Assembly (NCBI GenBank): GCA_964397025.1
Contig: CAYNGO010000001.1
Span: 38,038 to 102,037 of the forward strand
Source: an uncultured Weeksellaceae bacterium
GTDB lineage: Bacteria > Bacteroidota > Bacteroidia > Flavobacteriales > BACL11
Direction: 5' to 3'
Length of the DNA stretch: 64,000 nucleotides
The position numbers and the translations under genes were made by a program. The first letter of the stretch is position 1; every line of letters begins with the position of its first letter. This document shows positions 438 to 46,147 of this stretch, in pieces. The notes beneath the pieces are model-generated. The model saw only the letters and a program-made list of their open reading frames with translations, had not been told where the DNA came from and did no database searches.

Positions 438-442
438 CGCTT

Positions 443-1269: not shown

Positions 1270-2013
1270 ATGAACGCAAGAATAAATACAATTAACAACA
1301 ATATATCTAAATATAGAAATAATATTGTTGAGCACCCGCTTTATAAATCACTAAACTCATTAAAGCATATTGGTGTTATGATGGAGTATCACGCATATGC
1401 AGTCTGGGACTTTATGTCACTTTTAAAAGCTATGCAAGATCAATTAACCTGCACTAAAGCACCTTGGAAGCCTATTGGAGATAATAAAATAAGAAGACTA
1501 GTAAACTCTATAGTTTTAGAGGAAGAGAGTGATCTTGATGAGCAGGGTAACCCCTCTTCGCATTTTGAAATGTACTTAGGTGCTATGGAAGAATGTGGGG
1601 CAAGTACAGAAAAAATTAAGGATTTTGTAAATAGTATTGATGATAAATTGGTTAGTAGTGGAAATCAAGATATTGATAGCTTTTTACAGACAACATTTTC
1701 AATTATCGACACAAATGAGATTCACAAAATTGCTGCAGCATTTACATTTGGTAGAGAAGACTTAATTCCTGATATGTTTACAGCAATTGTAGAGGACTTA
1801 AATTCTGAAAACACATTAAGTAAATTTATATACTATTTAGAGAGACACATTGAGCTAGATGGTGGTGAGCATGGGCCTTTGGCCTTTCAATTAATTTCTG
1901 ATTTATGTGGTCAAGACGATAAAAAATGGAGGGAAGTAGAAGAAACTGCTATTGTTTGTTTAATTGCGCGCGAAAAATTATGGGATGCAATTTTTAATAA
2001 AATTTCAAAATAA
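1270..2013 (+). CDS. DUF3050-like (heme-oxygenase-like fold) protein
   Basis: 247 aa. Motif block HPLYKSL...HAYAVWDFMSLLKAMQDQLTCTKAPWKP is typical of DUF3050. The start abuts the upstream stop (TAAATG). Confidence 0.55.
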   Translation: MNARINTINNNISKYRNNIVEHPLYKSLNSLKHIGVMMEYHAYAVWDFMSLLKAMQDQLTCTKAPWKPIGDNKIRRLVNSIVLEEESDLDEQGNPSSHFEMYLGAMEECGASTEKIKDFVNSIDDKLVSSGNQDIDSFLQTTFSIIDTNEIHKIAAAFTFGREDLIPDMFTAIVEDLNSENTLSKFIYYLERHIELDGGEHGPLAFQLISDLCGQDDKKWREVEETAIVCLIAREKLWDAIFNKISK

Positions 2014-2040
2014 AAGATAGCGCTGTTTAAACTATTTTAT

Positions 2041-2781
2041 TTAATCTTTTTGCTTAAACGTTTTGATAGAGTTTTGAACTGATTGGTTAATTTGATTTAA
2101 CTCCGCAGCTGTAAAATCTCTGTATTCTCCTACAGGAATATCTAATTTTATATTCATTATCCTAACTCTTTTAAGTGCAACAACTCTATAATCAAAATAC
2201 TCACACATCCTTCTAATTTGTCTGTTTAATCCTTGGGTTAAAATAATTTTAAATGTTTTTTTACCCGTCTGCTTAACAAAGCATTTTTGAGTAACTGTTT
2301 CTAAAACAGGAACCCCTTCCCCCATTTCTTTAATAAACTCTTTTGTTATAGGTTTACTTACCTCAACGTGATATTCTTTTTCATGATGGTTATTAGCTCG
2401 TAAAATCTTATTTACAATATCCCCATCATTAGTTAAAAAAATTAATCCCTCAGATGGTTTATCTAATCTTCCAATTGGAAAAATCCTACTTGGGTAATTA
2501 ATGTAGTCTATAATATTGTTTTTTTCTCTTTTTTGGTCAGTTGTACAAACTATCCCAATAGGTTTATTAAATGCTATATATACATTTTTCTTTTTACCAA
2601 TCTGAACTTTTTTACCATTAACCTCTATTGTTTCATCGCCTATGATTTTCTGTCCCATGACAGCGATTTTACCATTAATTTTTATTCTGGCTTGTTCTAT
2701 TAAAACATCAGCTTTTCTTCTTGAACAATACCCAACCTCACTTAAGAATTTATTAATTCTTATTTTTAATTCCTCTGTCAT
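2041..2781 (-). CDS. RsuA/RluF-family rRNA pseudouridine synthase
   Basis: 246 aa. N-terminal S4 domain (RINKFLSEVGYCSRRKADVLI) and catalytic-Asp motif FPIGRLDKPSEGL. Confidence 0.85.
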   Translation of the reverse strand: MTEELKIRINKFLSEVGYCSRRKADVLIEQARIKINGKIAVMGQKIIGDETIEVNGKKVQIGKKKNVYIAFNKPIGIVCTTDQKREKNNIIDYINYPSRIFPIGRLDKPSEGLIFLTNDGDIVNKILRANNHHEKEYHVEVSKPITKEFIKEMGEGVPVLETVTQKCFVKQTGKKTFKIILTQGLNRQIRRMCEYFDYRVVALKRVRIMNIKLDIPVGEYRDFTAAELNQINQSVQNSIKTFKQKD

Positions 2782-2788
2782 ATCTTAA

Positions 2789-2796
2789 CAAAAATA
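2789..2796 (-). promoter_or_regulatory. Bacteroidota -7 box (TATTTTTG on minus strand) for the pseudouridine synthase gene
   Basis: The plus strand reads CAAAAATA, 8 nt upstream of the ATG at 2781. This implies a leaderless or very short 5' UTR. Confidence 0.45.
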
Positions 2797-2844
2797 CATT
2801 AAAGTTTAATTAAATGGATTTAAAATCTACTGATTAATTTAACT

Positions 2845-2852
2845 TATCTTTG
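2845..2852 (+). promoter_or_regulatory. Bacteroidota -7 box TATCTTTG for the S46 peptidase gene
   Basis: Exact TAnnTTTG match ending 1 nt before ATG 2854. This argues that ATG 2881 is the real start. Confidence 0.45.
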
Positions 2853-2880
2853 TATGAAAATCTATTTAAAAAAACTTTCT

Positions 2881-5301
2881 ATGTTAAAGAAAATTATATT
2901 CATATTATTATCAATTTTCCTCTCAAAACCTTTGATAGCGGATGAAGGTATGTGGCTTCCTCAATTATTAAAATTAGTTAATGAGGAGGATATGCAATCT
3001 AAAGGCTTGAAAATTACAGCAGAGGACATCTATAGTATAAATCAATCTTCACTAAAAGATGCTGTAGTAGCCTTAAATTGGGGAAGCTGTACAGCTGAAA
3101 TGATATCATCTGAAGGTTTAATGCTTACAAATCATCACTGTGCTCTAGATGTTATTCAAACTCATTCAAATGTTCAAAATGATTATCTTAATGATGGCTT
3201 TTGGGCTATGAGTAATACTGAAGAATTAAAAAATGATAATTTAAGCGCTACATTTTTGATAAGTATTGAGGATGTAACAAATCGAATAAATAAGGAGATC
3301 AGCAATAGCATGACTGAGGCAGAAAGATCAAAAAAAATCTCTGAAATTTCTAAATCTATTGTTAAAGAATATACAGATTCTACAACTTATACAGCTAGGG
3401 TAAAGTCTTTTTTTGGAGGAAATGATTTTTATCTTTTAATTTTTGAAACATTTAGTGATGTTCGATTAGTAGGCGCGCCTCCTTCATCTATCGGTAAATT
3501 TGGTGGAGATACTGATAATTGGATGTGGCCACGTCATACTGGAGATTTTTCTTTGTTAAGAGTTTATATGGCTCCAGATGGCTCTCCAGCTAAATACTCA
3601 ATTGACAATATCCCATATAAACCTAAACACCATCTTCCAATACAATTAGATGGAGTGGAAAATGAAGACTACACAATGATAATGGGATACCCTGGCAGAA
3701 CAAAAAGATACTTAACTTCATTTGGTGTTAAAGAAGCCTTAGATATTACCAATCCAACAATAGTTGATATAAGATCTGAAAAGCTAGCAATCATGAAGGC
3801 TGGTATGGATGATGATAAAAAAATTAAAATTCAATATGCTTCAAAATATGCTAGCACTTCTAATTACTGGAAATATTTTATTGGTCAATCTAAAGGATTA
3901 AAAAGCATGGGGGTCTATAAAAAAAAATCAGTAATTGAAGATCGGTTTAGGTATTGGGTAGAAAAAAGTGACTCATCAACTAAAGCAAAATACTCTAATG
4001 TTTTAGGCAATATAGAGAATGCCTACTCTGATAATAAAAGAATCGCCTTAAATAGAACGTATCTTACTGAAGCTATATTTCAAGGATCCGAAATAATGTC
4101 TTTTTCTTATACTATGAAAAATAGAATAAATGCGCTTCCCAAGGATAAAAAAGAAAGACTTATTGCCCTAAGAAAGCTTAAAAAAATTGCCAAAGATTTT
4201 TATAAAGATTATAATCCCCAGGTCGATCAAGAGCTTTTTTCATCTATGCTTGAAATGTATTATTATAATGTCCCTAAATCACAACATGCACCAATTTTTA
4301 AAAAAATAGAAAATCAACTTTTTGGTTTTAAAAAATTAGATTTTGATTATTATGCAAAAAATGTTTTTAGAAGATCTTATTTTTCTAGTAAAGAACGTTG
4401 TTCAGATTTTTTAAAAAATCCAAATAAAATACTTGTAAATAAAGACCCCGCATATCTAACGATGAATTCTATATATAGCAAGTATCTTAAAGATTTATAC
4501 CCTCAAAGAAAAGAAATAAGAGATATAATGAAAAAAGAAAATAGATTGTTTATGGCAGGTCTTAGAGAAATGGATTCTACAAAAAACTTCTATCCTGATG
4601 CTAACTCAACAATGCGAGTAACCTATGGGAATGTTGGAGACTATAATCCCGGCGAAGCAATGTTATATGACTACTTTACAACGATTGAAGGTGTAATGCA
4701 AAAAGAAGATCCAACAAATGAAGAATTTGTTGTTCATCCAAAATTAAAAGAACTTTATGAAACTGGGGACTATGGTCAGTATGCGGATAAAAACGGAAAT
4801 CTTAGGGTTAATTTTATATCCAACAATGATATTACGGGTGGTAATTCAGGCTCTCCGGTGATTAACGCTTGGGGAGAAATTGTAGGAACAGCATTTGATG
4901 GGAACTGGGAGGCTATGAGTGGTGATATTGCTTTTGAAAGTAAAATCCAAAGAACCATTTCTGTTGATATTAGATATATCATGTTCATTATTGATAAGTT
5001 CGCAAACGCTTCTTACTTGATTGAAGAGATGACTATTGCGCCAAGAAGAAAAGTAAAAGATAATGAGAAATTAGTTGACACAATTGAAAGCCAAGCAAAA
5101 AAAGAAATGGATCAAGCTGTTAATGACCCAAATACTATTGTGAAAAAATTAGAACTTAGAGAGTTTTCTGGATCTATGATTCCTGTATTAGATGTGCAAT
5201 CATTTGACACTGCTTTTGAATTAGCGTTAAATCAATATGGGTCTAGTAAAGAACAAAAGTTCTGGTGGAAAAATAATGTATATACAACAGAGAGGAAATA
5301 G
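2881..5301 (+). CDS. S46-family dipeptidyl-peptidase (DPP7/DPP11-like), secreted, with an extra C-terminal region
   Basis: Signal peptide followed by ADEGMWLP. Catalytic His in MLTNHHC and Ser in GGNSGSPV. The ORF-track start at 2854 is probably too far upstream (see -7 box). Confidence 0.85.
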   Translation: MLKKIIFILLSIFLSKPLIADEGMWLPQLLKLVNEEDMQSKGLKITAEDIYSINQSSLKDAVVALNWGSCTAEMISSEGLMLTNHHCALDVIQTHSNVQNDYLNDGFWAMSNTEELKNDNLSATFLISIEDVTNRINKEISNSMTEAERSKKISEISKSIVKEYTDSTTYTARVKSFFGGNDFYLLIFETFSDVRLVGAPPSSIGKFGGDTDNWMWPRHTGDFSLLRVYMAPDGSPAKYSIDNIPYKPKHHLPIQLDGVENEDYTMIMGYPGRTKRYLTSFGVKEALDITNPTIVDIRSEKLAIMKAGMDDDKKIKIQYASKYASTSNYWKYFIGQSKGLKSMGVYKKKSVIEDRFRYWVEKSDSSTKAKYSNVLGNIENAYSDNKRIALNRTYLTEAIFQGSEIMSFSYTMKNRINALPKDKKERLIALRKLKKIAKDFYKDYNPQVDQELFSSMLEMYYYNVPKSQHAPIFKKIENQLFGFKKLDFDYYAKNVFRRSYFSSKERCSDFLKNPNKILVNKDPAYLTMNSIYSKYLKDLYPQRKEIRDIMKKENRLFMAGLREMDSTKNFYPDANSTMRVTYGNVGDYNPGEAMLYDYFTTIEGVMQKEDPTNEEFVVHPKLKELYETGDYGQYADKNGNLRVNFISNNDITGGNSGSPVINAWGEIVGTAFDGNWEAMSGDIAFESKIQRTISVDIRYIMFIIDKFANASYLIEEMTIAPRRKVKDNEKLVDTIESQAKKEMDQAVNDPNTIVKKLELREFSGSMIPVLDVQSFDTAFELALNQYGSSKEQKFWWKNNVYTTERK

Positions 5302-5322
5302 TTAGTATTATCTTGGAGTTTA

Positions 5323-7218
5323 CTAATAAGCCCTCTTATTATTACCCTCTACATAGTTAATAAATGCCTTGGTAACCACCTTGTTTCCCCCTGGAGTTGG
5401 GTAATTGCCGGAAAAATACCAATCGCCTGTATGATTTGGGCAGGCAATATGAAGATCTTCAATACCTTGGTAAATTATCTCAACCTCTGCCCTTGTATTT
5501 TTTGGTGTTAATATTTGGCTTATTTTTTTTGAAATCTGCTCAGCGGAAAAAAGATTATAAATACCTTTAACATGATTAACCATCTCTTCCTTTGGGAGAT
5601 TAATCTGATCCTTACATTTTTCATATACATTATCAATAACATCTTCTTGTCCGGTGTCTTTAAGTAATGAAATTGCTGCTTGAAAAGCAATAAAGTCTCC
5701 AAGTATAGCCATATCAATACCATAACAATCGGGGTAGCGTATTTGAGGTGCAGAAGAAACTACAATTATTTTTTTTGGACCAAGCCTATCTAGTATTCTT
5801 AATATTGATTGCTTAAGAGTTGTTCCTCGAACAATACTATCATCAATCATTACTAGGTTGTCCTCTGAATTCACTTTTCCATATGTAATATCGTACACAT
5901 GCGCTACAAGATCATCCCTATTAACATCAGAGGTGATAAAAGTTCTAAGCTTGGCATCTTTTACTGCTATTTTTTCTGCTCTTGGGCTTATCGACATAAT
6001 ACGCTCAATATCATTAATTAATGGATTTTTACCAAGTGCTAATATTTTTTCTGATTTTACTTTATTTAAATATGTATCTACTTCTTTCATCATTCCAAAA
6101 TAAGACACTTCTGCAGTATTAGGAATATATGAAAAAACAGTTTTTTCTATATCTCCATTTATAGATTCTAAAACCTTATAAAAAACCTGTTGACCTAATC
6201 TTATTCTTTCATTATAAATATCTTTATCATTTCCTCTAGAAAAATAAATTCTCTCAAAAGAACAGGCTGTTCTAATAAGCGGTTTTAAAACCTCTTTTTC
6301 TGATACTGTTCCATTTTTTTTAATAATTAAAGCATGTCCACGTTTTATTTCCTTAATCTTAGTGTCATCTAAATTGAATGTTGTTTGTATAACTGGACGC
6401 TCAGAAGCTACAACAACAACTTCATCATCACAATAATAATATGCAGGTCTAATTGCAGATGGATCTCTTAAAGCAAATGCATCACCATGACCTAAAAGTC
6501 CACACATCACATAGCCTCCATCCCAGTGTTTTGAAGAGTTAGATAAAATTTCTTGAATATTTAATTCCTCCTCAATTTTTAGAGAAATTTCTTTTTTAGT
6601 GTAGTCTTCCTTGTGTTTTTGATATATATTCACATTAGCTTCATCCAAAAAATGTCCTATCTTTTCAATAATTGTAATTGTGTCAGATTTCTCTTTTGGG
6701 TGTTGTCCTAAATCTGTTAAATGACCAAATAACTCATCAACATTAGTCATGTTAAAATTTCCTGCCAGTGCTAGATTTCTAGTTTTCCAATTATTCTGTC
6801 TTAAAAAAGGGTGGCACTGCTCAATACTATTTCCTCCATATGTTCCATAACGTAGGTGTCCTAAAAATAACTCGCCAGTAAAAGGCATATTATTTTTCAA
6901 CCATTGAATATTATTTAACTTGTCAGGATCACTGTCCTCTAAATCTACAAATCGCTTATTGATATTTTCAAAAAGATCTTGGATCGGATTCTCATTTGTA
7001 GATCTCTTTCTACTTATGTACCTCTTTCCAAGGGGAGTATCTAGCTTTACATTTGCTAAGCCAGCCCCATCTTGCCCTCTATTTCTTTGCTTCTCCATTA
7101 GGAGGTACATTTTTTTTAAACCATAAAAAGATGTGCCGTACTTCTCTTTATAAAATTCTAAGGGCTTAAGCAGTCTTAGCATAGCTACTCCACATTCGTG
7201 CTTTAGAGAATCACTCAT
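5323..7218 (-). CDS. purF: Amidophosphoribosyltransferase (long Bacteroidota type)
   Basis: 631 aa. N-terminal nucleophile Cys in HECGVAMLRL, a glutamine amidotransferase class II domain, and the PRTase motif MIDDSIVRGTT. Confidence 0.9.
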   Translation of the reverse strand: MSDSLKHECGVAMLRLLKPLEFYKEKYGTSFYGLKKMYLLMEKQRNRGQDGAGLANVKLDTPLGKRYISRKRSTNENPIQDLFENINKRFVDLEDSDPDKLNNIQWLKNNMPFTGELFLGHLRYGTYGGNSIEQCHPFLRQNNWKTRNLALAGNFNMTNVDELFGHLTDLGQHPKEKSDTITIIEKIGHFLDEANVNIYQKHKEDYTKKEISLKIEEELNIQEILSNSSKHWDGGYVMCGLLGHGDAFALRDPSAIRPAYYYCDDEVVVVASERPVIQTTFNLDDTKIKEIKRGHALIIKKNGTVSEKEVLKPLIRTACSFERIYFSRGNDKDIYNERIRLGQQVFYKVLESINGDIEKTVFSYIPNTAEVSYFGMMKEVDTYLNKVKSEKILALGKNPLINDIERIMSISPRAEKIAVKDAKLRTFITSDVNRDDLVAHVYDITYGKVNSEDNLVMIDDSIVRGTTLKQSILRILDRLGPKKIIVVSSAPQIRYPDCYGIDMAILGDFIAFQAAISLLKDTGQEDVIDNVYEKCKDQINLPKEEMVNHVKGIYNLFSAEQISKKISQILTPKNTRAEVEIIYQGIEDLHIACPNHTGDWYFSGNYPTPGGNKVVTKAFINYVEGNNKRAY

Positions 7219-7238: not shown

Positions 7239-7246
7239 CAAATTTA
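7239..7246 (-). promoter_or_regulatory. -7 box (TAAATTTG on minus strand) for purF
   Basis: The plus strand reads CAAATTTA, 21 nt upstream of ATG 7218 and just downstream of the glutaredoxin-like stop codon. Confidence 0.45.
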
Positions 7247-7250: not shown

Positions 7251-7484
7251 TTAATGTCTTATAATTTCAGATAACCTACTAATTCCTGGATTCGTGTAAA
7301 CTTTACCATCAATAATAAATGTAGGGATAATTCTTTTTCCATTATTAAGCTTTTGGACAATCTCTCCAGCATCTTCATTTTCAGTTATATCAATATACTC
7401 ATAATCAATATATTTTTCATCAAGAAAATTCTTAGCGCTTACGCAAGATGGGCACCATAAGGCGCTGTACATTTTTATTTTCAT
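7251..7484 (-). CDS. Glutaredoxin/NrdH-like small thiol-disulfide protein
   Basis: 77 aa with a WCPSC redox motif near the N-terminus and RIIPTFIIDGK typical of the Grx fold. Its ATG overlaps the upstream stop (ATGA). Confidence 0.7.
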   Translation of the reverse strand: MKIKMYSALWCPSCVSAKNFLDEKYIDYEYIDITENEDAGEIVQKLNNGKRIIPTFIIDGKVYTNPGISRLSEIIRH

Positions 7485-7759
7485 AAAGATTTAAAGATAT
7501 AAGTTTTGTTTTTTTGAATTATTGTACATAGTTGACAATGTGAAAGATATGTAAATGTATATTCTTCTTCTAAACTAAATCCTAACTTATCAATCTCAAA
7601 TAACCCAGAACACTCTAAAGCTCCTAATTTTGAAAAACGACTTATTTTAAACAGCGAAGATTCTTTAATAATACAAAACCAAGAGCCTGCGCCTATTCCT
7701 GCTAGCCATTGAGAATTACTAGGGATATTTTGAGGGGTTTCTATTGGTTTTAAAATCAT
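7481..7759 (-). CDS. Hypothetical 92-aa protein with a C-terminal CxxC (SHCQLCT)
   Basis: ORF with ATGA overlaps to both neighbours. I recognise no family. Four Cys in total. Confidence 0.5.
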   Translation of the reverse strand: MILKPIETPQNIPSNSQWLAGIGAGSWFCIIKESSLFKISRFSKLGALECSGLFEIDKLGFSLEEEYTFTYLSHCQLCTIIQKNKTYIFKSL

Positions 7760-8409
7760 GAACGCTCAATACTTTTAAAATATGATTCTAGAATATTGCG
7801 TTTTATTTTTTTTACTAAATTATCTCCTACTTTATAAAAAGTAGCATTTGCAATTCCCACGTTTCTTTTAGGAGAGGGGGAAATACAGAAAGGGAGCTTT
7901 AATCTTGTGTTTTTTATAAATGTTGGACTAGAGCTTCTCATTACCGAAGCTACAAATCTAGAACAATTTGTTCCGCTAGAAACAAAAGGCCCATAAAGCA
8001 CTAAACCATTATTTTGGATTTTTTTTGCATATTCATATGCTTTTTGAAATGAAACATCGTTTAATATAGAAGCGTAGAGGGTTCCCTCGCCATGAAAGGC
8101 TGTATTTTTTTTTATCTCAAATAAAATATCTTCTATGTTTACAATTTCTTTTGATTTAATCTCTGCAGTAATTTGAATACAGACATCATGATCTGTATCT
8201 TTATTTCTTACTCTTCCAAATCCTTTAGGAGTATGATATCTTCCAAAATCAAAATAATGTAATTCTCCAGTTAACCTTTCAACTAATACTGCTGCTGAAT
8301 GACCAACTCTATATTTACCATTTTTAGCAAAAAATCTATCATACCAAACATCTGTTTTGGCCACCATTCCCTCTGGCCAAGCCAAAGCTATTATAAAGTC
8401 ATTTTGCAT
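7756..8409 (-). CDS. Hypothetical protein with a His..His..Cys pattern resembling permuted papain-like (LRAT/NlpC-P60-like) thiol enzymes
   Basis: 217 aa. VGHSAAVLV (His37), GELHYFDF (His51) and GTNCSRFV (Cys149). The order and spacing resemble the H/H/NCEHFV layout of LRAT-like enzymes. This is inference only. Confidence 0.4.
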   Translation of the reverse strand: MQNDFIIALAWPEGMVAKTDVWYDRFFAKNGKYRVGHSAAVLVERLTGELHYFDFGRYHTPKGFGRVRNKDTDHDVCIQITAEIKSKEIVNIEDILFEIKKNTAFHGEGTLYASILNDVSFQKAYEYAKKIQNNGLVLYGPFVSSGTNCSRFVASVMRSSSPTFIKNTRLKLPFCISPSPKRNVGIANATFYKVGDNLVKKIKRNILESYFKSIERS

Positions 8410-8432
8410 AAAGCTAAAATAAACTCTTTTTT

Positions 8433-9827
8433 TTAATTACTTATTTTTTTTAGGTCTTGATCATATTGTTGACAAAACACCTCTAATGTTTTAAAAAACT
8501 CTAAAATTTCTGATTTTGAGTTTTCTCCATTTATTGTTACAAGTCTAATAAAACACTGCTTACGAAAGTATCCAAAACCTACCATAATTTTGTTTTTTTC
8601 ATAAAGCTTAGTACAAAGATCTATTGGATCATAATTCTTATAATTAAAGCAGATTGATAGAGATTTTTCAAAACTATATAAAGTATAATCTTTATTTATT
8701 ATCGTATAAGATCGGGCATAATCAGCAAGATCAAATTCGTGATTTATAATGTTACAGATTCCTTTAGTACCTATTGATTTCCACATAGTCCAAAACTTAA
8801 GAGCGTTATTTCTTCTCCCGCATTCGAAAGAATTATATCCTAAATTGTAATCAATATCGTGTGTTTGATATAAATAAGATGCGTCGTTTTTAAAAGAATT
8901 AGAAATCATTTTAGATTCTCTAACAACTAAAATTGATGTGCTTAAAGGGACTCCAAGAGTTTTATGAGCATTAAAACAAAAGGAATCAGATTTCTCAACC
9001 CCTTTAACAAGATCCTTGTATTTATCTGTGAAGATAACAGAGCCGCCAAAAGCACCGTCAACGTGCAACCATATACTATACTTTTTACATATCCTTGAGA
9101 TCTCATCTATATTGTCAAATGCACACAATACAGTAGTTCCAGCAGTTGCATTAATATAAAAAGGAATGCAATCATTTGTAATATCTTCTCGAATTTGATT
9201 TTCTAAGGAGATGGTGTCAAGCTGGCCAAAACTATTACATTTTATATATCTAACATTATTCTTTCCTAATCCACTAAAAGAGGCATTTTTTGCAACTGAA
9301 TAATGCGATTCTTCAGATGAGTAGGCGACAAATTTTTGTTTAAATCCTTTATTAATTATATCCTTACTTTTTTGATCTCTTGCGATGATTAATGACATAA
9401 AATTACTCATTGAGCCACCAGTAGGAAATGTTCCTCCTGCACTCTTGGGATACTTTATCAATTCGCAGACTTTAGATAATATTTCTTTTTCCACAGCAGC
9501 CTGAGGCCCCGATATTTTATATGTAGCCATAGAATTATTAAGCATAACTGCCAATAAATCTCCTAAAACCGCCTTACTATGACGACCCCCAAACAACTGA
9601 TTAAAAAACATCTTTGATGATGATTTTGGAGTGGATAAAACAAGTTTTTTTAAAGTCTGTTTAAACTCCGTCTGTATTGAAGGTTCGTCAGATAAAGAGA
9701 GGTCTATTTTATTATATAAATCTTTAATTTTAATACTTTTAGAAATAGGGGTTGTTTTTTCATCCTCTAGAAAATCATCAACTATTTCATTAAATAATTT
9801 TAAGTCCTCTTTAATATTATTAAGCAT
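8433..9827 (-). CDS. Group II pyridoxal-phosphate-dependent amino-acid decarboxylase
   Basis: 464 aa. PLP-lysine motif FCFNAHKTLGVPL, HVDGAFGG, and length typical of the Pyridoxal_deC family. The substrate cannot be read from the sequence. Confidence 0.8.
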   Translation of the reverse strand: MLNNIKEDLKLFNEIVDDFLEDEKTTPISKSIKIKDLYNKIDLSLSDEPSIQTEFKQTLKKLVLSTPKSSSKMFFNQLFGGRHSKAVLGDLLAVMLNNSMATYKISGPQAAVEKEILSKVCELIKYPKSAGGTFPTGGSMSNFMSLIIARDQKSKDIINKGFKQKFVAYSSEESHYSVAKNASFSGLGKNNVRYIKCNSFGQLDTISLENQIREDITNDCIPFYINATAGTTVLCAFDNIDEISRICKKYSIWLHVDGAFGGSVIFTDKYKDLVKGVEKSDSFCFNAHKTLGVPLSTSILVVRESKMISNSFKNDASYLYQTHDIDYNLGYNSFECGRRNNALKFWTMWKSIGTKGICNIINHEFDLADYARSYTIINKDYTLYSFEKSLSICFNYKNYDPIDLCTKLYEKNKIMVGFGYFRKQCFIRLVTINGENSKSEILEFFKTLEVFCQQYDQDLKKISN

Positions 9828-9853
9828 TAATATTTTATTAATTTAATTATCTA

Positions 9854-9861
9854 CAAAATTA
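9854..9861 (-). promoter_or_regulatory. -7 box (TAATTTTG on minus strand) for the decarboxylase operon
   Basis: The plus strand reads CAAAATTA, 27 nt upstream of ATG 9827. Confidence 0.45.
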
Positions 9862-9939: not shown

Positions 9940-9947
9940 TTATCTTT
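9940..9947 (+). promoter_or_regulatory. -7 box TATCTTTG for the LTD/CotH gene
   Basis: Exact TAnnTTTG match 41 nt upstream of ATG 9988. Confidence 0.4.
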
Positions 9948-9987
9948 GCATGTAAATACCTTTAATTAAAATTAAGGCTTTTAAAAA

Positions 9988-12900
9988 ATGAAAAAAAAAC
10001 ATATTCTATTTTTACTTTTTTCTGTTTTAATTAACACGCTTTACTCTCAGATTGTCATAAATGAATACTCTGCGGCTAATTATGAAAGTCATCTTGATAA
10101 TTATGGTGAATATGAGGATTGGATTGAGCTTTATAATACTACAAGTACTGACATAGACCTAAATGGATGGTTTCTTTCTGACAAAACATCTAACACTAAT
10201 AAATGGCAGTTTATGTCTTCTTACATAATTAGTGCTAATAGTGTTGGTATTATCTATTGCTCTGGAAATGATGAGGTATTAGGAGGATTTGCGCACACAA
10301 ACTTTAAAATTACACAAACAACTGGAAATGAAGTTTTCATATTGTCTGACCCTAGCTCAATTATTATTGATTCTATTACAGTCATTCCAAATTTAAAATC
10401 TCATTCCAGAGGAAGAGATGTAAATGGAGGGAGCTCTTGGAGTGTTTTCACTTCTCCAACTCCAAATATGAATAATACAGGGGCAATGCTCGATTATGCT
10501 CCAGCTCCAGTATTTTCTCAATCACCAGGCTATTATAGTGGTCCGCTTTCTCTTACAATTACTTCATCAGATCCAAATGCAATAATTTATTATACAACTG
10601 ATGGATTTGTCCCTAGCAGTAATTCTAATTTGTATAGTGGGCCAATTAATATTGCTTCGACCTCTGTTGTTAAGGCAATTGCTTATAGTACAAACTCAAA
10701 TGTTCCAAATAGCTTTATTGAGTATAATACCTATTTTATAAATGAGACTCATACAATACCTATTTTATCTGTATCCGGAGATAGTGTAGCTGTGCTTATT
10801 GAAGATGGGGTAAGAACTTTAGGTGGTTGGAATGGCCCCGCACATGAGCCACAAGGCACAATAGAGTGGTTTGATAAAAACGGGGGTATTATTGATAAGG
10901 GTTCTGGTGAGTTTAACAAACATGGTAATGACTCCTGGGCATATGACCAAAGAGGTTTTGACTACGTAATGCGAGATCAGTTTGGTTATAACTACGCACT
11001 TCAAGATAAGTTATTTGAAACTAAAAATAGAGATAAGTTTCAAAAAGTAATTGTTAAAGCAGCTGCAAATGACAATTATCCCGCATCATATAGTAATTCA
11101 GGAGCGCATATTAGAGATGCGTTTGTACAGCACTTATCACAAATAGCTGATCTTCGCATGGATGAAAGATCTACAACTTCTTGTATCTTATATTTAAACG
11201 GAGAATACTGGGGGGTTTATGAAATGAGGGAAAAGGCGGATGATCATGATTTCACCAAGCATTATTATGATCAGGGGAAAAATGATTTGCAGTACTTAAA
11301 AACATGGGGGAATACCTGGTCGGAGTATGGTGGAGTACAGGCTCAAACTGATTGGGATAATCTTAAAAACTATATCGCCACTAATCCAATGAGTAATCAA
11401 AGTAATTACTTAAATGTTAAAGGTCAATTTAATACGGGAAGTATAATTGATTACTTTCTACTTAATTCATATGTTGTTTGTGCTGACTGGTTAAATTGGA
11501 ATACGGCCTGGTGGAGAGGTTTAGATACAAATGGAGATAAAAAGAAATGGAGATATGCTCTTTGGGATATGGACAATACTTTTGATCATGGAACAAATTA
11601 TACTGGTGTTCCTACAATGTCTGTAAATGCAGACCCTTGTGACCCAAGTAGTCTTACAGATCCGGGTGGGCAAGGGCATGTTCCTATTTGGAATGAACTA
11701 CTAAATAATACTAGTTTTTTTGACGATTATTTAAATCGGTGGCAAGACCTTGCTAATGGATATCTTTCATGTGATTCTATGATATATGTGCTGGATAGTA
11801 TGATCAATGTTATTGATCCTGAAATGCCAAGGCAAATTGCAAAATGGGGTGGGACATATGTAGAGTGGCAAAATAATGTACAAGACTTAAGAGATTTTAT
11901 TAATGCTAGATGTAGTATTATGAATGCTGGATTTGGGCCTTGTCATCCTCAACTTTCAGGACCGCATAATTTAACAATTGAGATTATTGGTGTTGGTGAA
12001 GTTGAAATGAGTAATGGTAATTTGATAAATCAAACAAATACTGGATGGGTAGATCAAAGATATGGTGGGGTAAGCACTCCTTTTGAAGTTAAAAGTGGAA
12101 CATTTCAAAATTGGGAGGTAATTCCATCAGGAATATACTCTTATGATCCTCTTCTAGACACTATGAGTCTTGATTTACAAGGTGATGTTACTGTAATTGC
12201 TAATTTTATTCCACCACCTCCTCCAGTGGAAACAAGAGATATTACTTTTAAAGTAAATCCTTCTGGAACATCCTCTGCTATAGTTGTTAATGGAACAACC
12301 CTAAACTCATTCCCAACAACAATTAACTATGTTCTTGGAGATACGGTAATTATCTCTCCAATTATAGATCCTCTTTATGGTTTTAGCAATTGGACTTGTG
12401 ATAGTGTAGCTTTAATGCCTCAAAATAATAATCTGACTGATTCATTTTATGTAAATCATCATGACACAATTTATCTAAATCAATATTTGCTTCCCACAAT
12501 AACAGCTTTTATTTCTGGTAATGATACAATCTGTTCTAATCAGCAACAACTAGCAAATATTAGTGTCGCTTTTACTGGAATTCCTCCTTTCACATTTAAT
12601 TATTCCATAAATAGTATAGAGCAAACAGAAATCACAACAAGCTCTAATCCATACACAATCTCTACATCAATTGCTGGAGAATATAATCTAGTAAGTTTTT
12701 CTGATGCAGTAGAAACTGGAGGGCTTAGCGGTCAGGCGCTAGTGACAATCTCAGAAGCTCCAATAGCTAATTTCCAACCAGAACCTAGCACAACGACTAT
12801 TTTATATACAACAATTCAAATGATTGATCAATCTTCAGACAATGTTGTTAGTTGGGAATGGATATTTGGAGATAATATTGAAACAAATACTGAGCAAAAC

Positions 12901-13311
12901 CCACTACACACTTATCCCGAAACAGTTTCTCAACACCAAATATTTTTGACTGTTCGAAATAGTTTTGGTTGTATAGATTCTATTTTTAGAATAATTAATA
13001 TTACTGATGATTATTGGATTTATATACCAAATTCATTTACCCCTAACTCTGATGATGTTAATGATAAGTTTTTTATTAGCCACTATGGGGTTTTAGAGGA
13101 AACTTTCACCATTAACATTTACAATAGATTTAATGAAGTCGTCTATTCAACAAAAAACATAATAGACCTTTCTAAAGAAAATGGATGGGATGGTAGACAT
13201 CAAACAAAAGGGTTTAATCTTACTTCTGGAACATACATCTACGAACTGTCTTATCAAGACTTAGATGGATGGAAGCACTTTAAAACTGATAAAGTAAATA
13301 TCATTAGGTAG
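9988..13311 (+). CDS. Large secreted multidomain protein: lamin-tail domain, chitobiase/Fn3-associated domain, CotH kinase-family domain, PKD domain, T9SS type B C-terminal domain
   Basis: 1107 aa with a signal peptide. LTD: IVINEYSA...YEDWIELYNTTSTDIDLNGWFLSD. CHB_HEX_C-like: IIYYTTDGFVPSSNSNLYSGPI. CotH block: CILYLNGEYWGVYEMREKADDHDF. PKD: WEWIFGD...NPLHTY. Gliding-motility C-terminal domain: YIPNSFTPNSDDVNDKFF. Confidence 0.8.
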   Translation: MKKKHILFLLFSVLINTLYSQIVINEYSAANYESHLDNYGEYEDWIELYNTTSTDIDLNGWFLSDKTSNTNKWQFMSSYIISANSVGIIYCSGNDEVLGGFAHTNFKITQTTGNEVFILSDPSSIIIDSITVIPNLKSHSRGRDVNGGSSWSVFTSPTPNMNNTGAMLDYAPAPVFSQSPGYYSGPLSLTITSSDPNAIIYYTTDGFVPSSNSNLYSGPINIASTSVVKAIAYSTNSNVPNSFIEYNTYFINETHTIPILSVSGDSVAVLIEDGVRTLGGWNGPAHEPQGTIEWFDKNGGIIDKGSGEFNKHGNDSWAYDQRGFDYVMRDQFGYNYALQDKLFETKNRDKFQKVIVKAAANDNYPASYSNSGAHIRDAFVQHLSQIADLRMDERSTTSCILYLNGEYWGVYEMREKADDHDFTKHYYDQGKNDLQYLKTWGNTWSEYGGVQAQTDWDNLKNYIATNPMSNQSNYLNVKGQFNTGSIIDYFLLNSYVVCADWLNWNTAWWRGLDTNGDKKKWRYALWDMDNTFDHGTNYTGVPTMSVNADPCDPSSLTDPGGQGHVPIWNELLNNTSFFDDYLNRWQDLANGYLSCDSMIYVLDSMINVIDPEMPRQIAKWGGTYVEWQNNVQDLRDFINARCSIMNAGFGPCHPQLSGPHNLTIEIIGVGEVEMSNGNLINQTNTGWVDQRYGGVSTPFEVKSGTFQNWEVIPSGIYSYDPLLDTMSLDLQGDVTVIANFIPPPPPVETRDITFKVNPSGTSSAIVVNGTTLNSFPTTINYVLGDTVIISPIIDPLYGFSNWTCDSVALMPQNNNLTDSFYVNHHDTIYLNQYLLPTITAFISGNDTICSNQQQLANISVAFTGIPPFTFNYSINSIEQTEITTSSNPYTISTSIAGEYNLVSFSDAVETGGLSGQALVTISEAPIANFQPEPSTTTILYTTIQMIDQSSDNVVSWEWIFGDNIETNTEQNPLHTYPETVSQHQIFLTVRNSFGCIDSIFRIINITDDYWIYIPNSFTPNSDDVNDKFFISHYGVLEETFTINIYNRFNEVVYSTKNIIDLSKENGWDGRHQTKGFNLTSGTYIYELSYQDLDGWKHFKTDKVNIIR

Positions 13312-13314
13312 CCT

Positions 13315-15144
13315 ATGCTTTACTTGTTTCAATATATCATTTCGTTAGAGAGGTTAAAAAACAACATACAGCAAACAATCTTTATTGTTCTTTTTTTTAT
13401 TCCTAGTCTTGTTATTGGCCAGACGATATATAACCCGCAAATTCTATATGATACCCCTGGAGGTTTATATGAAAAAGATTCTTTAAGAGATATTTATATC
13501 AACTTCTATGATCCTAGTTATCATACAATTCTTCAAAACTCTTTTTTCACAAACCCTTCATTTCGAATTCCGGCAAGTATTACTTATTCTCATGATGATG
13601 TGACGTATGATAGTGTTGGGGTTCGGTATAAAGGAAACTCAACGTTCTGTATACCAAATGACAATGGTATTCCTAAAGTGCCATATAATATAGATATGAA
13701 TTATTGGATATCTGGGCAAAAACTATTAGGATATAAAAAAATAAAGCTAGCAAATGCCTGGATGGACGCTACATTCTTAAAAGAATATACGGCTTCTAAA
13801 ATTTACAAAAAATATCTACCTACACCTGAGGTTAGCCTAGCAAAACTACATGTTCAAGGAGATTATTTAGGCCTTTACGTAAATACAGAGTCTATTAATA
13901 AACAATTTGCAAAAAAACATTTTAACGAAAATAATGGAGCTTTAATAAAATGTGATGGTAGCGGCATGTTTTGTGATACCACAGGTACGCCTGTAGGTGG
14001 AGAGCCAGGGCTGAATTGGTACGGAACAGGTGATAGTACCGCATACTTTTCTAGCTATAATCTAAAATCAGATTATGGTTGGAATGAGCTTGTAGATCTA
14101 ATTTACACTCTAAACTTCAATACTAATGAATTAGATTCTATCTTAAATATAGATAGAGTTTTATGGGCTTTTGCTGTAAATACAGTTATTGGTAATTTTG
14201 ACACTTATAACGGTTATTATGTACATAACTATTATTTTTATCAAACTGAAGACGGCTTATTTCAGATGATTCCATGGGATCTAAGTCAAAGCTTTATTAA
14301 TGCACTTCTTGGATGGGATATCTTCACACCTCAAGGCCCTTTACACCCACAGCAATTTGACCCATATTACGGAGATGACCCAAGTCTTAATAGGCCTTTA
14401 GCTTATATTTTATTAAATAATGGAGATTATAGGAAGCAGTATACTGCTCATCTAAGAACAGTTATCAGTGAATTAGACACTAATTTAATTAGAAGCGATG
14501 TGTTAAACATGCAAAGTCTAGCCTACACAGCAGTTGATAGCGACCCCAACAAACTATTTTCTATTTCAGATTATATTACAAATGTTGAGCAAGATATTTC
14601 TTTAGGGCTTTGGGGAGGATATGGTTTTGGAGGAATTATGTCGACTCTTAGATACCGAATTCCATTTTTGCAATCTAATAGCGAAATATCACAGGTGCCA
14701 CCTGATTTATACGGATTAAATATTACTGGCAATATAGTTACTATTAGTGCATCAAATGAAAACTCTGTTGAGTTAATGGCAACACAAAACGAATACAATT
14801 CTAAGTTTAAATCTTTTAACATGTATGATGATGGGACTAATGGAGACGCTCAAGCTAACGATGACGTGTATTCATGCTATATGCCTTTTTCATCAGCTCT
14901 TGAGGTTAAGTTTTATGTAAAAGCAAAAAACTCTCAATCAATCATGTTATTTCCAGAAAGAGCAGAATATGAATTTTACAAATACTCACCTATTTCAGGC
15001 GCAATCGAATCTCCTTTATCAAATGCTAAAGAGCTATTAAACATTACTGATGTATTGGGGAGAAAAGCCGGATTTAGCTATAATAAACCTCTTATATATA
15101 TTTTTACAGATGGCAGTGTTGAGAAGAAAATAATTGTAAAATAA
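13315..15144 (+). CDS. CotH kinase-family protein, secreted, with a short C-terminal sorting-like tag
   Basis: 609 aa with an N-terminal hydrophobic signal. CotH block: KIKLANAWMDATFLKEYTASKIY...LHVQGDYLGLYVNTESINKQFAKKHF. The C-terminus is ...ITDVLGRKAGFSYNKPLIYIFTDGSVEKKIIVK. Confidence 0.75.
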   Translation: MLYLFQYIISLERLKNNIQQTIFIVLFFIPSLVIGQTIYNPQILYDTPGGLYEKDSLRDIYINFYDPSYHTILQNSFFTNPSFRIPASITYSHDDVTYDSVGVRYKGNSTFCIPNDNGIPKVPYNIDMNYWISGQKLLGYKKIKLANAWMDATFLKEYTASKIYKKYLPTPEVSLAKLHVQGDYLGLYVNTESINKQFAKKHFNENNGALIKCDGSGMFCDTTGTPVGGEPGLNWYGTGDSTAYFSSYNLKSDYGWNELVDLIYTLNFNTNELDSILNIDRVLWAFAVNTVIGNFDTYNGYYVHNYYFYQTEDGLFQMIPWDLSQSFINALLGWDIFTPQGPLHPQQFDPYYGDDPSLNRPLAYILLNNGDYRKQYTAHLRTVISELDTNLIRSDVLNMQSLAYTAVDSDPNKLFSISDYITNVEQDISLGLWGGYGFGGIMSTLRYRIPFLQSNSEISQVPPDLYGLNITGNIVTISASNENSVELMATQNEYNSKFKSFNMYDDGTNGDAQANDDVYSCYMPFSSALEVKFYVKAKNSQSIMLFPERAEYEFYKYSPISGAIESPLSNAKELLNITDVLGRKAGFSYNKPLIYIFTDGSVEKKIIVK

Positions 15145-15182
15145 TTAGATTTCCATTCATTGCTTATCTTAAAATCAAAACC

Positions 15183-15190
15183 TATATTTG
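15183..15190 (+). promoter_or_regulatory. -7 box TATATTTG for ileS
   Basis: Exact TAnnTTTG. It overlaps the ORF-track TTG start (15188) and lies 22 nt upstream of ATG 15212. Confidence 0.45.
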
Positions 15191-15211
15191 CACGAATTGG
15201 TAGTAAAAAAT

Positions 15212-18200
15212 ATGAGTAAATTTAAAGAATATAGAGAGTTAAGCCTTCCTTTGATACATAAGGATGTTTTACATTACTGGAAAAAAAACAATATTTTTAA
15301 TCAGAGTATTGAAAATAAAAAAGAATCTAAAAACTTCACTTTTTACGAAGGACCTCCATCTGCAAATGGTATGCCTGGAATTCATCATGTAATTGCGCGA
15401 ACTATAAAGGATCTTTTTTGTAGGTATAAAACCTTAAAGGGTTTTCAAGTTAATCGAAAGGCAGGCTGGGACACACATGGATTACCTGTTGAGCTAGGCG
15501 TAGAAAAAGAACTTGGTTTAACTAAAGAGGATATTGGTAATAAGATTTCTATTGAAGACTACAACAAAGCTTGTCGTGTTAATGTTATGAAATACAAGAA
15601 ATCTTGGGAAAATATAACTGAGGAGATGGGTTATTGGGTTGATATGCAAAATCCATACGTAACATATGATAATAAATATATTGAAAGCGTATGGTGGCTA
15701 CTTAAACAACTTCATGAAAAAAAATTACTTTACAAAGGACACACGATTCAACCATTTTCTCCTAAAGCAGGTACTGGTCTTAGTACACACGAATTAAATC
15801 AGCCAGGGTGTTATAAGAATGTAAAAGACACTTCTGCTGTGGCTCAATTTAAAGTTATTAATGATGAGTTAAGTAATTTTTTATTTTCTAAAACGAAAAA
15901 TGAGGTTTTTTTTATAGCGTGGACAACCACCCCATGGACACTTCCCTCTAACACAGCTCTCGCTGTAGGTAAAAAAATTACATATTTTCTAGTTGAAACA
16001 GTTAATCAATACACTGGGGCCGTAATTTCAATAATTTTAGCAAAAGATCTTTTATCTAATTTCTTTAAAAAAGAAAATGAGAATAAAGAGCGTAAAAATC
16101 ATATTATAGGCAATAAGAGTCTTCCTTATATTATTATTGACAAATTTAGTGGTGGTAGTCTTATTAATATTAAATACGAACAGCTACTAAAATATGCTCA
16201 GCCAGATGATGGTGAGGCTTTTAAGGTTTTAAGTGCCGATTTTGTTACTACAGAAGATGGTACTGGAATTGTTCACTTAGCACCTAGCTTTGGCGCTGAT
16301 GATAGTAGGGTTGCAAAACAAAATGGTATTGGATCTTTAACTTTAGTGGACGAACAAGGAAGGTTTACTAAAGAGGTTACAGATTTTTATGGTCAATATG
16401 TAAAAGAAGAATATTATACTGAAAAAGAGGTCAAGCCAAAACTACCAGCTGATGTTCAGGTGGTTATAAAAATTAAAGAGGAGGGAAATTTATTTAAATC
16501 TGAAAAATACGAACATTCTTATCCTCACTGCTGGAGAACAGATAAGCCTATATTATATTACCCTCTTGACAGTTGGTTTGTAAAAACAACGAGTCATAAA
16601 AAAAGAATGTTAGAATTAAACAAAACTATTAATTGGAAGCCCGCTTCTACTGGAGATGGTCGGTTTGGAAATTGGCTTGAAAACTTGGTAGACTGGAATT
16701 TATCTCGTTCTAGATTTTGGGGCATTCCTCTTCCAATTTGGAGGACTGAAAACGGTGAAGAAGAGGTGTGTATTGGGTCTATAGAAGAGTTAAAAGTAGA
16801 AATTAATAAATCGGTAGCTGCTGGATTTATGATGCAAAATCCTCTAGAGAAGTTTGTAGTTGGAGATTTTTCTGAAGAAAACTATAATGTTTTTGATTTA
16901 CATCGACCATATGTTGATGATATCATACTTGTTTCAAATTCGGGTTTGGCTATGAAAAGAGAGCTAGATTTAATTGATGTTTGGTTTGATTCTGGCTCAA
17001 TGCCCTACGCTCAGCTTCACTATCCATTTGAAAACAAAGAGCTATTTAAAGAAAGTTTTCCGGCAGATTTTATTGCCGAAGGAGTAGATCAAACTAGGGG
17101 GTGGTTTTTTACTCTACACGCTATATCAACTCTTGTTTTTGATTCTGTTGCTTATAAAAATGTAGTTTCAAATGGTTTAGTTTTAGATAAGAGTGGTAAT
17201 AAGATGTCTAAGCGGCTTGGAAATGCAACAGATCCATTTATTACAATAAATAAGTATGGAGCAGATGCAACAAGATGGTATATGATTAGCAATGCTCAGC
17301 CATGGGACAACCTTAAGTTTGATGAAGGAGGGATATTGGAAGTTCAAAGGAAATTCTTTGGCACCCTCTATAATACATATTCGTTCTTTTCACTATATGC
17401 AAATATTGATAATTATAAATATGTCTCTGGAGAGTCAAAAATTAATAACCGGGACAAAACAGATAAATGGATTATCTCAGAGCTAAACTCTCTTATAGAT
17501 GATGTTACAGAAAATTACGAAAGCTATGAGCCAACAAAAGCAGCTAGGCTAATACAGGATTTTGTAGTCAACAAGCTTAGTAACTGGTATATCAGATTAA
17601 ATAGGCGTAGATTTTGGAAGGGAGAGTATAATCTTGATAAAAAAAATGCATATAGTACTCTTTTTGAATGTCTAGAAATAGTTGCTCTTATCTCATGCCC
17701 AATAGCCCCTTTCTTTATGGACAATCTATATCAGGACCTTCACGGCTCTAGTGATTCTATTCATCTTAATGAGTTTCCAAACTCAAATAAAGAGGCGATT
17801 GATATACATTTAGAAGATCAAATGCAAATTGCTCAAAAAATATCATCAAGTATTCTATCGCTTAGAAAAAAAGAGAAGGTGAGGGTTCGTCAACCATTAA
17901 AGACAGCCCTTATCACTTCATCCAAAGAGATAGTAAGACAAAATATTAATGAAATAAAAAATATAATTTTAAGTGAAACTAATTTAAAAAAATTAGAACT
18001 AATTGATGAAGACTCGACATTAGTTTCGAAAAAAGCAAAGCCCAATTTTAAGGTTCTTGGACCTAAATATGGAAAAAAAATTAAAGAAATTTGTCTTGAT
18101 ATTAGCACACTAAACAGTGTTCAAATAAAAAAACTAGAAAAAAACAAAGAGGTGAAGTTAGAAAGTGGTCTATCTGTTTTGCTAGAAGACGTTGATATTA

Positions 18201-46136: not shown

Positions 46137-46147
46137 CAATTATTAAA

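Follow-up and report, generated by a model that had tools for sequence, protein, structure and literature searches.

The window analysed here, a stretch of 64,000 nucleotides (64 kb) from contig CAYNGO010000001.1 of an uncultured marine member of the Flavobacteriales, carries on its minus strand four packed open reading frames (ORFs). They encode a group II pyridoxal phosphate (PLP) decarboxylase, a 217-aa protein related to the Vibrio cholerae effector TseH, a 92-aa protein with a DUF6695_C domain and a 77-aa glutaredoxin-like protein. Read from the sequence, the genes are joined by a 23-nt gap and two ATGA overlaps, and the ORFs, sizes, spacing and overlaps described in the original prediction of this locus are all present. 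So are the motifs that it listed: NAHK in the decarboxylase, VGHSAAVLV (His37), LHYFDF (His51) and GTNCSRFV (Cys149) in the 217-aa protein, CQLC in the 92-aa protein and CPSC in the glutaredoxin-like protein. We regard the genes as real because their Pfam matches far exceed the curated cut-offs and because the four-gene order recurs; the same order with overlapping junctions was found in dozens of marine Flavobacteriales contigs. That the four genes form an operon is well supported, and so is the view that this operon is a slimmed-down version of a module distributed across the Bacteroidota. Taken together, the results presented below speak for a pathway of sulfur-amine metabolism or acyl transfer that has not been described, and against a weapon. 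The operon is composed of the following features:

8433-9827, minus strand: group II PLP decarboxylase, 464 aa, PF00282
8410-8432, minus strand: intergenic gap of 23 nt, from the decarboxylase stop to the start of the 217-aa gene
7756-8409, minus strand: TseH-like putative catalytic subunit, 217 aa, PF25218
7756-7759, minus strand: ATGA stop/start overlap of the 217-aa and 92-aa genes, read from the sequence
7481-7759, minus strand: DUF6695_C domain protein, 92 aa, PF20405
7481-7484, minus strand: ATGA stop/start overlap of the DUF6695_C and glutaredoxin genes, read from the sequence
7251-7484, minus strand: glutaredoxin-like protein, 77 aa, PF00462

A two-part Cys/His enzyme of the TseH clade

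The 217-aa protein had been proposed to follow the permuted papain-like layout of LRAT and NlpC/P60 enzymes, and both profile and structure comparisons bear this out. It matches PF25218 (TseH-like) with 159 bits (cut-off 27, E 1.3e-46), and phmmer aligns it with TseH (VCA0285, PDB entry 6v98) at E 1e-3 with the GH and NC motifs in register. A Foldseek search with its AlphaFold2 (AF2) model (pLDDT 74) returned 6v98 as the only significant fold match in the PDB (E 3.9e-8, TM-score 0.62/0.73, probability 1.00). In a profile search of PDB sequences TseH alone was matched, with no LRAT or YiiX among the hits. From the family profile and the predicted structure, the 217-aa protein is best described as a permuted papain-like NlpC/P60 Cys/His enzyme of the TseH clade, a clade that is the sister of the LRAT, YiiX, Tox-Act1 and Lnb clades.

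TseH thus shares fold and family with the window protein, and it is the only significant match to it in both sequence and structure. The two have in common the permuted order of His before Cys and the GH, YxD/E-x-GRY and NC motifs, in 223 aa for TseH and 217 aa for the window protein. However, TseH is a secreted protein with toxicity in the periplasm, its gene neighbours a PAAR gene and a distinct polypeptide, TsiH, confers immunity to it, whereas the window protein has no evident secretion signal and belongs to a conserved metabolic/stress operon. No signal peptide was seen by visual inspection of the N-termini of the four operon proteins. The window protein also has an obligatory DUF6695_C partner, fused to it in many species, that is absent from the 203-residue crystal chain of TseH. 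LRAT/PLAAT (H-RAS-like suppressor) and Lnb (DUF4105) are of the same permuted NlpC/P60 Cys/His type, but they constitute separate clades with no direct sequence or fold match to the window protein, and unlike it they are membrane-anchored and use lipid or protein acceptors. We know of no decarboxylase partner for LRAT/PLAAT or Lnb.

Residue conservation was examined in an alignment of 32 diverse family members, where fourteen positions are invariant in all the sequences (Pro12, Gly36, His37, Tyr52, Asp54, Gly56, Arg57, Tyr58, Arg66, Arg68, Asp73, Asn91, Gly109 and Cys149) and four others, His106, Asn148, Arg151 and Phe152, are nearly invariant. His37 and Cys149, both named in the original prediction, are among the invariant residues and align with the GH and NC motifs of TseH; they are likely the catalytic base and the nucleophile, respectively. 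His51, the other residue named there, did not hold up. Position 51 is occupied by H, Y, L or C already in close relatives, and by F, E and others besides, a variability that rules it out as a catalytic residue. The conserved polar residues of the His51 strand are Tyr52 and Asp54, and the latter may be a better candidate for the third polar residue, because it is invariant and aligned with a Glu in TseH.

The 92-aa protein was originally taken for a redox mini-protein with a CxxC motif, a reading that has to be abandoned. It matches PF20405, the C-terminal domain of DUF6695, with 90.1 bits (cut-off 25, E 1.1e-25), and its model (pLDDT 87) is a seven-stranded all-beta domain without a significant fold match in the PDB, the best hits being beta-propeller blades and OspA sheets at E 0.14. 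The CQLC motif occupies residues 75-78 of 92. Its second Cys is gone in two family members (P0281 and P0282), the CxxC is lost at about 45-50% identity and neither Cys is conserved across the wider DUF6695_C family, which discards the motif as a redox centre. In an exhaustive family search that gave 342 clusters at 50% identity, a majority of the distant members (297-395 aa) hold the TseH-like and DUF6695_C parts in one chain.

Gene neighbourhoods were sampled in 80 species-representative genomes out of at least 597 with a match, nearly all of them from Bacteroidota. The two parts are separate ORFs in most of the 80, always adjacent and with DUF6695_C directly downstream. Among 65 split pairs the most frequent junction, seen in 22, is an overlap of 4 nt, and three loci of the sample are clear fusions. 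A sequencing frameshift was considered as the origin of the split between the 217-aa and 92-aa genes and rejected, since more than 60 species show it, with varied junction types. Since the two parts are fused in relatives, adjacent without exception and deeply conserved by vertical descent, we argue that the 92-aa protein is a detached C-terminal domain or subunit of the TseH-like enzyme, and not an immunity protein. In the window the two parts are separate polypeptides whose translation is coupled.

Some members of the family show particular features at their ends or at the junction between the two parts. A minority of fused DUF6695 proteins (P0139, P0166, P0255 and P0263) have N-termini resembling signal peptides or those of lipoproteins, so that some members of the family may be exported, and the C-terminus of P0136 is a hydrophobic tail that resembles the C-terminal anchor of PLAAT/LRAT. 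A spacer of ~100 nt parts the enzyme halves in two Vicingus-like genomes (L049, 6605-6687; L058, about 6591-6685). Within the spacer of L049 there is an inverted repeat of 28 nt (93% complementary) that has the appearance of a small palindromic element, inserted where the halves meet.

The decarboxylase, the glutaredoxin and the link to cysteine dioxygenase

The decarboxylase matches PF00282 (Pyridoxal_deC) with 252.5 bits (cut-off 27, E 6.9e-75), its NAHK motif aligns with the NPHK of GAD, GADL1 and CSAD at the PLP-binding lysine, and its closest relatives in the PDB are animal GAD67/65, GADL1 and CSAD (E ~1e-65). By homology it is placed in the GAD/CSAD/GADL1 branch, whose substrates are acidic amino acids. 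It reached none of the NCBIfam equivalog cut-offs, including those for PanP, the aspartate 1-decarboxylase (117.5 bits, cut-off 606), and for 2,4-diaminobutyrate (DABA) decarboxylase (159 bits, cut-off 900). Its automatic name at JGI is 'sulfinoalanine decarboxylase/aspartate 1-decarboxylase' and its NCBI name is generic. A homologue search with the window decarboxylase retrieved the marine clade only and added nothing on function.

In a motif comparison, the specificity region of the window decarboxylase has F, S and A, together with TYK and a basic GGRHSK stretch. It thus departs from the CSAD/GADL1 type, which has F/Y, S and Y at these positions and TYE instead of TYK. We take the three positions to be F94, S114 and Y116 of human CSAD, a numbering that follows Agnello et al. 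2013 and is supported by our alignments. The first of them is confirmed by a published study, which describes its role in the pocket (PMC7367687). The decarboxylases linked to TseH-like genes in distant Bacteroidota carry Y/F, S and Y with TYE; they share 53-62% identity with one another, while the window decarboxylase is ~32% identical to them (28-35%).

Several distant loci have a cysteine dioxygenase type I gene ahead of their decarboxylase gene. The encoded protein is of the Arg-type, since it keeps the substrate arginine of the YGR motif together with HxH, the third His and the Tyr. Its best PDB match is the cysteine dioxygenase of Bacillus subtilis (E 1e-10), against E 0.2 only for 3-mercaptopropionate dioxygenase. 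The coding regions of cysteine dioxygenase, decarboxylase and TseH-like protein often abut or overlap in these modules. The association was also examined in reverse, by scanning metagenomes with CSAD-type decarboxylases, which gave 80 loci, 40 of them non-redundant and with enough flank to be judged:

Cysteine dioxygenase adjacent, TseH-like/DUF6695_C pair downstream: 12 loci
Cysteine dioxygenase adjacent, pair absent: 0 loci
No adjacent cysteine dioxygenase, pair downstream: 4 loci
No adjacent cysteine dioxygenase, pair absent: 24 loci

Fisher's exact test on these 40 loci gives p = 3e-7, a value uncorrected for phylogeny. On inspection, two of the four loci with the pair alone (L087 and L099) were found to have a cysteine dioxygenase close by. 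As judged from gene order, the conserved core of the fuller versions of the module is cysteine dioxygenase, decarboxylase, TseH-like protein and DUF6695_C. This order implies that cysteine would be converted to cysteine sulfinate and then to hypotaurine, followed by a further step dependent on the Cys/His enzyme.

The window decarboxylase lies in the same GAD/CSAD/GADL1 branch as the enzyme of the known cysteine dioxygenase plus CSAD route to hypotaurine and taurine in bacteria and animals. The other Bacteroidota modules start with an Arg-type cysteine dioxygenase and a Y/F-S-Y decarboxylase, in contrast to the window, where the decarboxylase has F/S/A and TYK rather than F/S/Y and TYE and where no cysteine dioxygenase homologue was found within the 64 kb. 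A search of the window for other accessory families of the module (DinB, TANGO2, thioredoxin, peroxiredoxin and others) was equally negative. In this sense, the decarboxylase of the window clade is a different member of the branch that occupies the same slot. Its non-orthology argues for functional coupling and not for inherited adjacency, and we read it as a sign that the pair needs an amine derived from decarboxylation. In the window lineage the substrate may be other than cysteine sulfinate.

The call of a glutaredoxin-like protein with CPSC was confirmed for the 77-aa product, which matches PF00462 with 48.2 bits (cut-off 22.9, E 1.2e-12) and has the motif at residues 11-14. It resembles the mycoredoxin/NrdH-type glutaredoxins in length, thioredoxin fold and CxxC, and its best matches are mycoredoxin models and structures: TIGR02200 among NCBIfam profiles, with 67.6 bits, and Rv3198.1 of Mycobacterium tuberculosis in the PDB, at E 1e-9. 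It differs from mycoredoxin in scoring under the 89.5-bit cut-off of that profile and in its CPSC motif. Its nearest relative by context is the N-terminal double domain of an AhpF-like flavin adenine dinucleotide (FAD) oxidoreductase from Emticicia. This gene, annotated 'FAD-dependent oxidoreductase', lies at 4571-5986 of L166 (Emticicia oligotrophica pEMTOL01) within the same stress cluster as the TseH-like genes and has an AhpF-like layout; the window glutaredoxin is 46% and 39% identical to its two tandem N-terminal domains. The JGI name of the window glutaredoxin, 'thioredoxin reductase (NADPH)', probably stems from this similarity. The glutaredoxin gene is restricted to the marine clade, where it is missing in five loci (L010, L026, L028, L029 and L031). 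Its product appears to be a small cytoplasmic glutaredoxin-like protein, accessory to the operon in that clade.

Gene neighbourhoods, promoter boxes and flanking genes

In the marine clade, at 51-72% identity, the order decarboxylase, TseH-like, DUF6695_C, (glutaredoxin) and PurF-like is kept, the flanks are syntenic and the decarboxylase lies directly upstream of the TseH-like gene in nearly all loci. Of 53 distant loci (40-50% identity), 17 have a decarboxylase gene immediately before the TseH-like gene and 21 have a member of the NRDE/TANGO2 family there. The pairing of decarboxylase and thiol enzyme is thus conserved well beyond close relatives. The four-gene order, which the original prediction suggested testing across Flavobacteriia, survives for the decarboxylase and both halves of the enzyme, but not for the glutaredoxin, which is confined to the marine clade.

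The NRDE/TANGO2 gene, whose product begins with MCT, is usually preceded by a gene for a 168-aa protein that RefSeq annotates as 'DinB family'. The DinB-NRDE/TANGO2 and decarboxylase cassettes co-occur in none of the 53 distant loci, and such mutually exclusive upstream cassettes suggest alternative routes to or from the same substrate. Examples of the DinB-NRDE/TANGO2 cassette are found in the range L032-L085 (L034 at 5285-6937, L055, L082) and at 6798-8910 of L166; it occupies the same place as the cysteine dioxygenase-decarboxylase cassette, between DUF4833 and the TseH-like gene.

The recurrent neighbours comprise an extracytoplasmic function (ECF) sigma factor, an anti-sigma-like protein, YceI, an OB-fold protein, several thioredoxin-like proteins, AhpC/TSA, AhpD/CMD, DUF4833, a pyridine-nucleotide disulfide reductase and a short-chain dehydrogenase/reductase (SDR). 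At least one of the recurrent stress-cluster families, SDR not counted, is present in 43 of the 53 distant loci; mostly these are ECF sigma/anti-sigma, thioredoxin-like, AhpC/TSA, AhpD/CMD and YceI. The cluster is found again in the RefSeq annotation of the Emticicia oligotrophica plasmid pEMTOL01, where two neighbouring genes are labelled 'DUF6695 family protein', and this provides independent confirmation of the stress-cluster context. Neither PAAR, VgrG, Hcp, Rhs nor other secretion genes are among the recurrent neighbours in 165 loci and in the annotated Emticicia and Aureibacter regions. The examined loci likewise have no defence genes among their recurrent neighbours, and no synthesis genes for known thiol cofactors were seen in the neighbourhoods.

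Other loci depart from these arrangements. In L167 (Aureibacter tunicatorum pAT1, 7890-9026) a fused 378-aa DUF6695 protein is encoded beside SDR oxidoreductases, AraC-type regulators and an acyltransferase; this region has no stress-cluster genes, and the family is thus not confined to a single neighbourhood. An insertion of ~5.8 kb with five ORFs parts the decarboxylase from the TseH-like gene in L018-L020 (about 180-6000), from BACL11-type Cryomorphaceae. Between the same two genes, L012 carries a partial second TseH-like copy (5401-5766, 36% identity) and L022 an extra ORF of 194 aa. Cultured carriers of the family are Emticicia oligotrophica DSM 17448 and Aquirufa beregesia 50C-KIRBA.

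Around the operon of the window we noted the following features:

9854-9861, minus strand: TAATTTTG, match to the Bacteroidota -7 promoter consensus, 26 nt upstream of the decarboxylase ATG
7239-7246, minus strand: TAAATTTG box, second consensus match, 20 nt upstream of the PurF-like ATG
5323-7218, minus strand: PurF-like amidophosphoribosyltransferase, long-form, 631 aa, starting 32 nt past the operon
9941-9948, plus strand: TATCTTTG box
46063-46137, plus strand: tRNA-Asn (GTT), the sole RNA-family match in the 64 kb

The box at 9854-9861 is present as predicted. The motif TAnnTTTG occurs 91 times in the window, compared with ~112 expected by chance, and this lack of enrichment rules it out as a statistically meaningful promoter signal. 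TAATTTTG is then no more than a well-placed consensus match, and the evidence for it is positional only. Scans for sigma-70 promoters and terminators gave results at chance level, and no terminator-like site was found on the minus strand inside the operon. The TAAATTTG box before the PurF-like gene is compatible with an operon end after the glutaredoxin; all over the marine clade the PurF-like gene keeps its place in synteny with the operon, and it is absent from the distant loci. Just beyond the operon start, three large ORFs (1107, 609 and 1118 aa) occupy 9988-18544 of the plus strand. The first, of 1107 aa, starts at 9988 and diverges from the operon. It probably encodes a surface protein secreted by the type IX secretion system, given that its relatives in other contigs carry LTD, CotH, PKD and CHU_C domains.

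Proposed function and alternative explanations

All permuted NlpC/P60 clades characterised so far work on acyl groups: the LRAT/PLAAT clade consists of acyltransferases, Lnb is the lipoprotein N-acyltransferase of Bacteroides, Tox-Act1 is a phospholipase and TseH itself showed weak phospholipase activity in a liposome assay (PMC12994826). LRAT/PLAAT and Lnb work through an acyl-thioester, and PLAAT and Lnb acylate amines (PMC12994826). By analogy, the most likely function of the window system, which we propose tentatively, is that of a cytoplasmic acyl-enzyme acting on the amine product of the decarboxylase. The decarboxylase would make a small amine with an acidic group. In the ancestral, cysteine dioxygenase-linked version this would be hypotaurine, derived from cysteine sulfinate, and in the window lineage, given its altered pocket residues, the substrate could be another small acidic amino acid. 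An acyl-thioester would form on Cys149, with His37 as the base, and the acyl group would be passed to the amine in an N-acylation like those of LRAT/PLAAT and Lnb, or else such a conjugate would be hydrolysed. The beta-domain may be a structural or substrate-binding partner, the glutaredoxin may keep the catalytic thiol reduced and the product may serve in protection against oxidative stress. Besides the analogy with LRAT/PLAAT and Lnb, the acyl-thioester is suggested by the lipid or acyl flavour of the partners (TANGO2, YceI and SDR); TANGO2/NRDE has been described as an acyl-CoA binder and a probable Cys N-terminal nucleophile (Ntn) hydrolase. The original idea of a small pathway for making or conjugating an amine thus keeps its foundation in the conserved coupling to the decarboxylase, and loses the redox role of the 92-aa protein and the conservation of the glutaredoxin.

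Several observations weigh against an acyl-enzyme that uses the decarboxylase's amine. About two thirds of the distant loci have no adjacent decarboxylase and 21 of the 53 have DinB plus NRDE/TANGO2 instead, an alternative upstream cassette which indicates that the enzyme does not strictly need this decarboxylase. The diverged specificity positions and the lack of a cysteine dioxygenase in the window make the substrate uncertain, and the co-occurrence statistics are uncorrected for phylogenetic relatedness. The only assayed relative, TseH, is a toxin acting in the periplasm and has been proposed to be a peptidoglycan amidase or a phospholipase. To our knowledge, no member of the TseH clade provides a direct precedent for transferring an acyl group to a small soluble amine.

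An alternative is a stress-repair hydrolase, a cytoplasmic phospholipase or thioesterase that clears damaged acyl chains or acyl-thiol adducts under oxidative stress, with the decarboxylase (and elsewhere the cysteine dioxygenase) merely co-regulated as a maker of antioxidant or for the disposal of excess cysteine. The phospholipase activity of TseH is in line with this explanation, as is the fact that those distant pairs which lack a decarboxylase belong to a set where 43 of 53 loci have the stress cluster; the alternative TANGO2/NRDE partner, with its acyl-CoA binding and probable hydrolase nature, fits too. We nevertheless consider it doubtful, since the all-or-none link of cysteine dioxygenase to the pair (12 against 0), the abutting or overlapping junctions of the decarboxylase and TseH-like genes and the recruitment of a non-orthologous decarboxylase into the same slot suggest more than co-regulation. 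A role as an amidase upstream of thiol metabolism, or alongside it, appears quite unlikely. The Cys/His enzyme would here trim conjugates or peptides of low-molecular-weight thiols, in a mercapturate-like route, and the freed cysteine or conjugate would then be oxidised and decarboxylated or pass to the DinB and NRDE proteins. In favour of this, gamma-glutamyl or amide hydrolysis is the activity of canonical NlpC/P60 and CHAP enzymes, the alternative cassette combines a DinB protein (thiol-transferase-type) with an Ntn-hydrolase-type protein and never occurs with the decarboxylase, and thioredoxin-fold genes often follow the pair (glutaredoxin in the marine clade, thioredoxin-like elsewhere). 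Yet the enzyme belongs to the permuted type, and lipid acyl groups are the target of every member of that type characterised so far; nor were genes for making any known thiol cofactor seen in the neighbourhoods.

The decarboxylase could also be a housekeeping enzyme, a PanP/GADL1-like aspartate 1-decarboxylase that supplies beta-alanine for coenzyme A, the pair being unrelated to it or engaged in the turnover of coenzyme A or pantetheine. Its automatic JGI name includes aspartate 1-decarboxylase, GADL1-type motifs accept aspartate, the gene is universal in a streamlined marine clade where it sits among housekeeping genes such as purF, and TANGO2 has been linked to coenzyme A metabolism. This explanation is improbable, however, as the enzyme scores far too low for the PanP equivalog (117 bits, cut-off 606) and nothing in it would account for the conserved coupling to the TseH-like gene. 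The least probable, and very unlikely, is a toxin with its immunity protein or inhibitor, in which the 217-aa protein would be the toxin, the 92-aa protein its cognate immunity and the decarboxylase a chance neighbour. TseH is indeed a type VI effector with a downstream immunity gene, a 2026 paper gives the TseH clade (Pfam DUF6695) genomic contexts of conflict type, and such pairs typically have a small second gene whose start overlaps the first. But both parts are fused into one polypeptide in many species, and in at least 597 species genomes the pair keeps a fixed slot of a conserved stress cluster, where PAAR, VgrG, Rhs and other secretion genes are not among the recurrent neighbours. PADLOC gave no hits to defence or conflict systems, no signal peptide is evident and the neighbours remain in synteny between deeply diverged genomes, as vertical inheritance, but not mobility, would have it. 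As the main explanation, a toxin and immunity pair is ruled out: the parts occur fused, their conservation is vertical, their location is cytoplasmic and neither secretion nor defence genes accompany them.

The preferred acyl-enzyme has a more far-reaching version, which combines an undescribed conjugate of hypotaurine or a related decarboxylation-derived amine, made by Bacteroidota and among them the abundant marine Flavobacteriales, with a housekeeping two-part acyltransferase of the TseH family and with TseH as its weaponised offshoot. The candidate conjugate would be an N-acyl-hypotaurine-type lipid serving as a sacrificial antioxidant. That all these elements hold jointly is unlikely.

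The enzyme families involved are known, and we classify as new the split or fused architecture with DUF6695_C, the cellular role and the coupling to a pathway. Our literature search found no paper linking a TseH-like enzyme to the cysteine dioxygenase/CSAD pathway, none describing the module and no work on hypotaurine in Flavobacteria. DUF6695 is mentioned by one study only in the literature searched, which treats the clade as conflict-associated; unlike in that published view, the Bacteroidota members of DUF6695 examined here lie in housekeeping and stress contexts. If the proposed function is true, it would provide a hypothesis of function and substrate for DUF6695, a family present in at least 597 Bacteroidota species genomes, annotated as 'hypothetical' and discussed only as a toxin clade. 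The bacterial route from cysteine dioxygenase through CSAD to hypotaurine, known sporadically, would gain one more conserved step, and the permuted NlpC/P60 toxins would have housekeeping relatives. It would also imply that a sulfur metabolite so far unknown is produced in a phylum that is important for the ocean and the gut.

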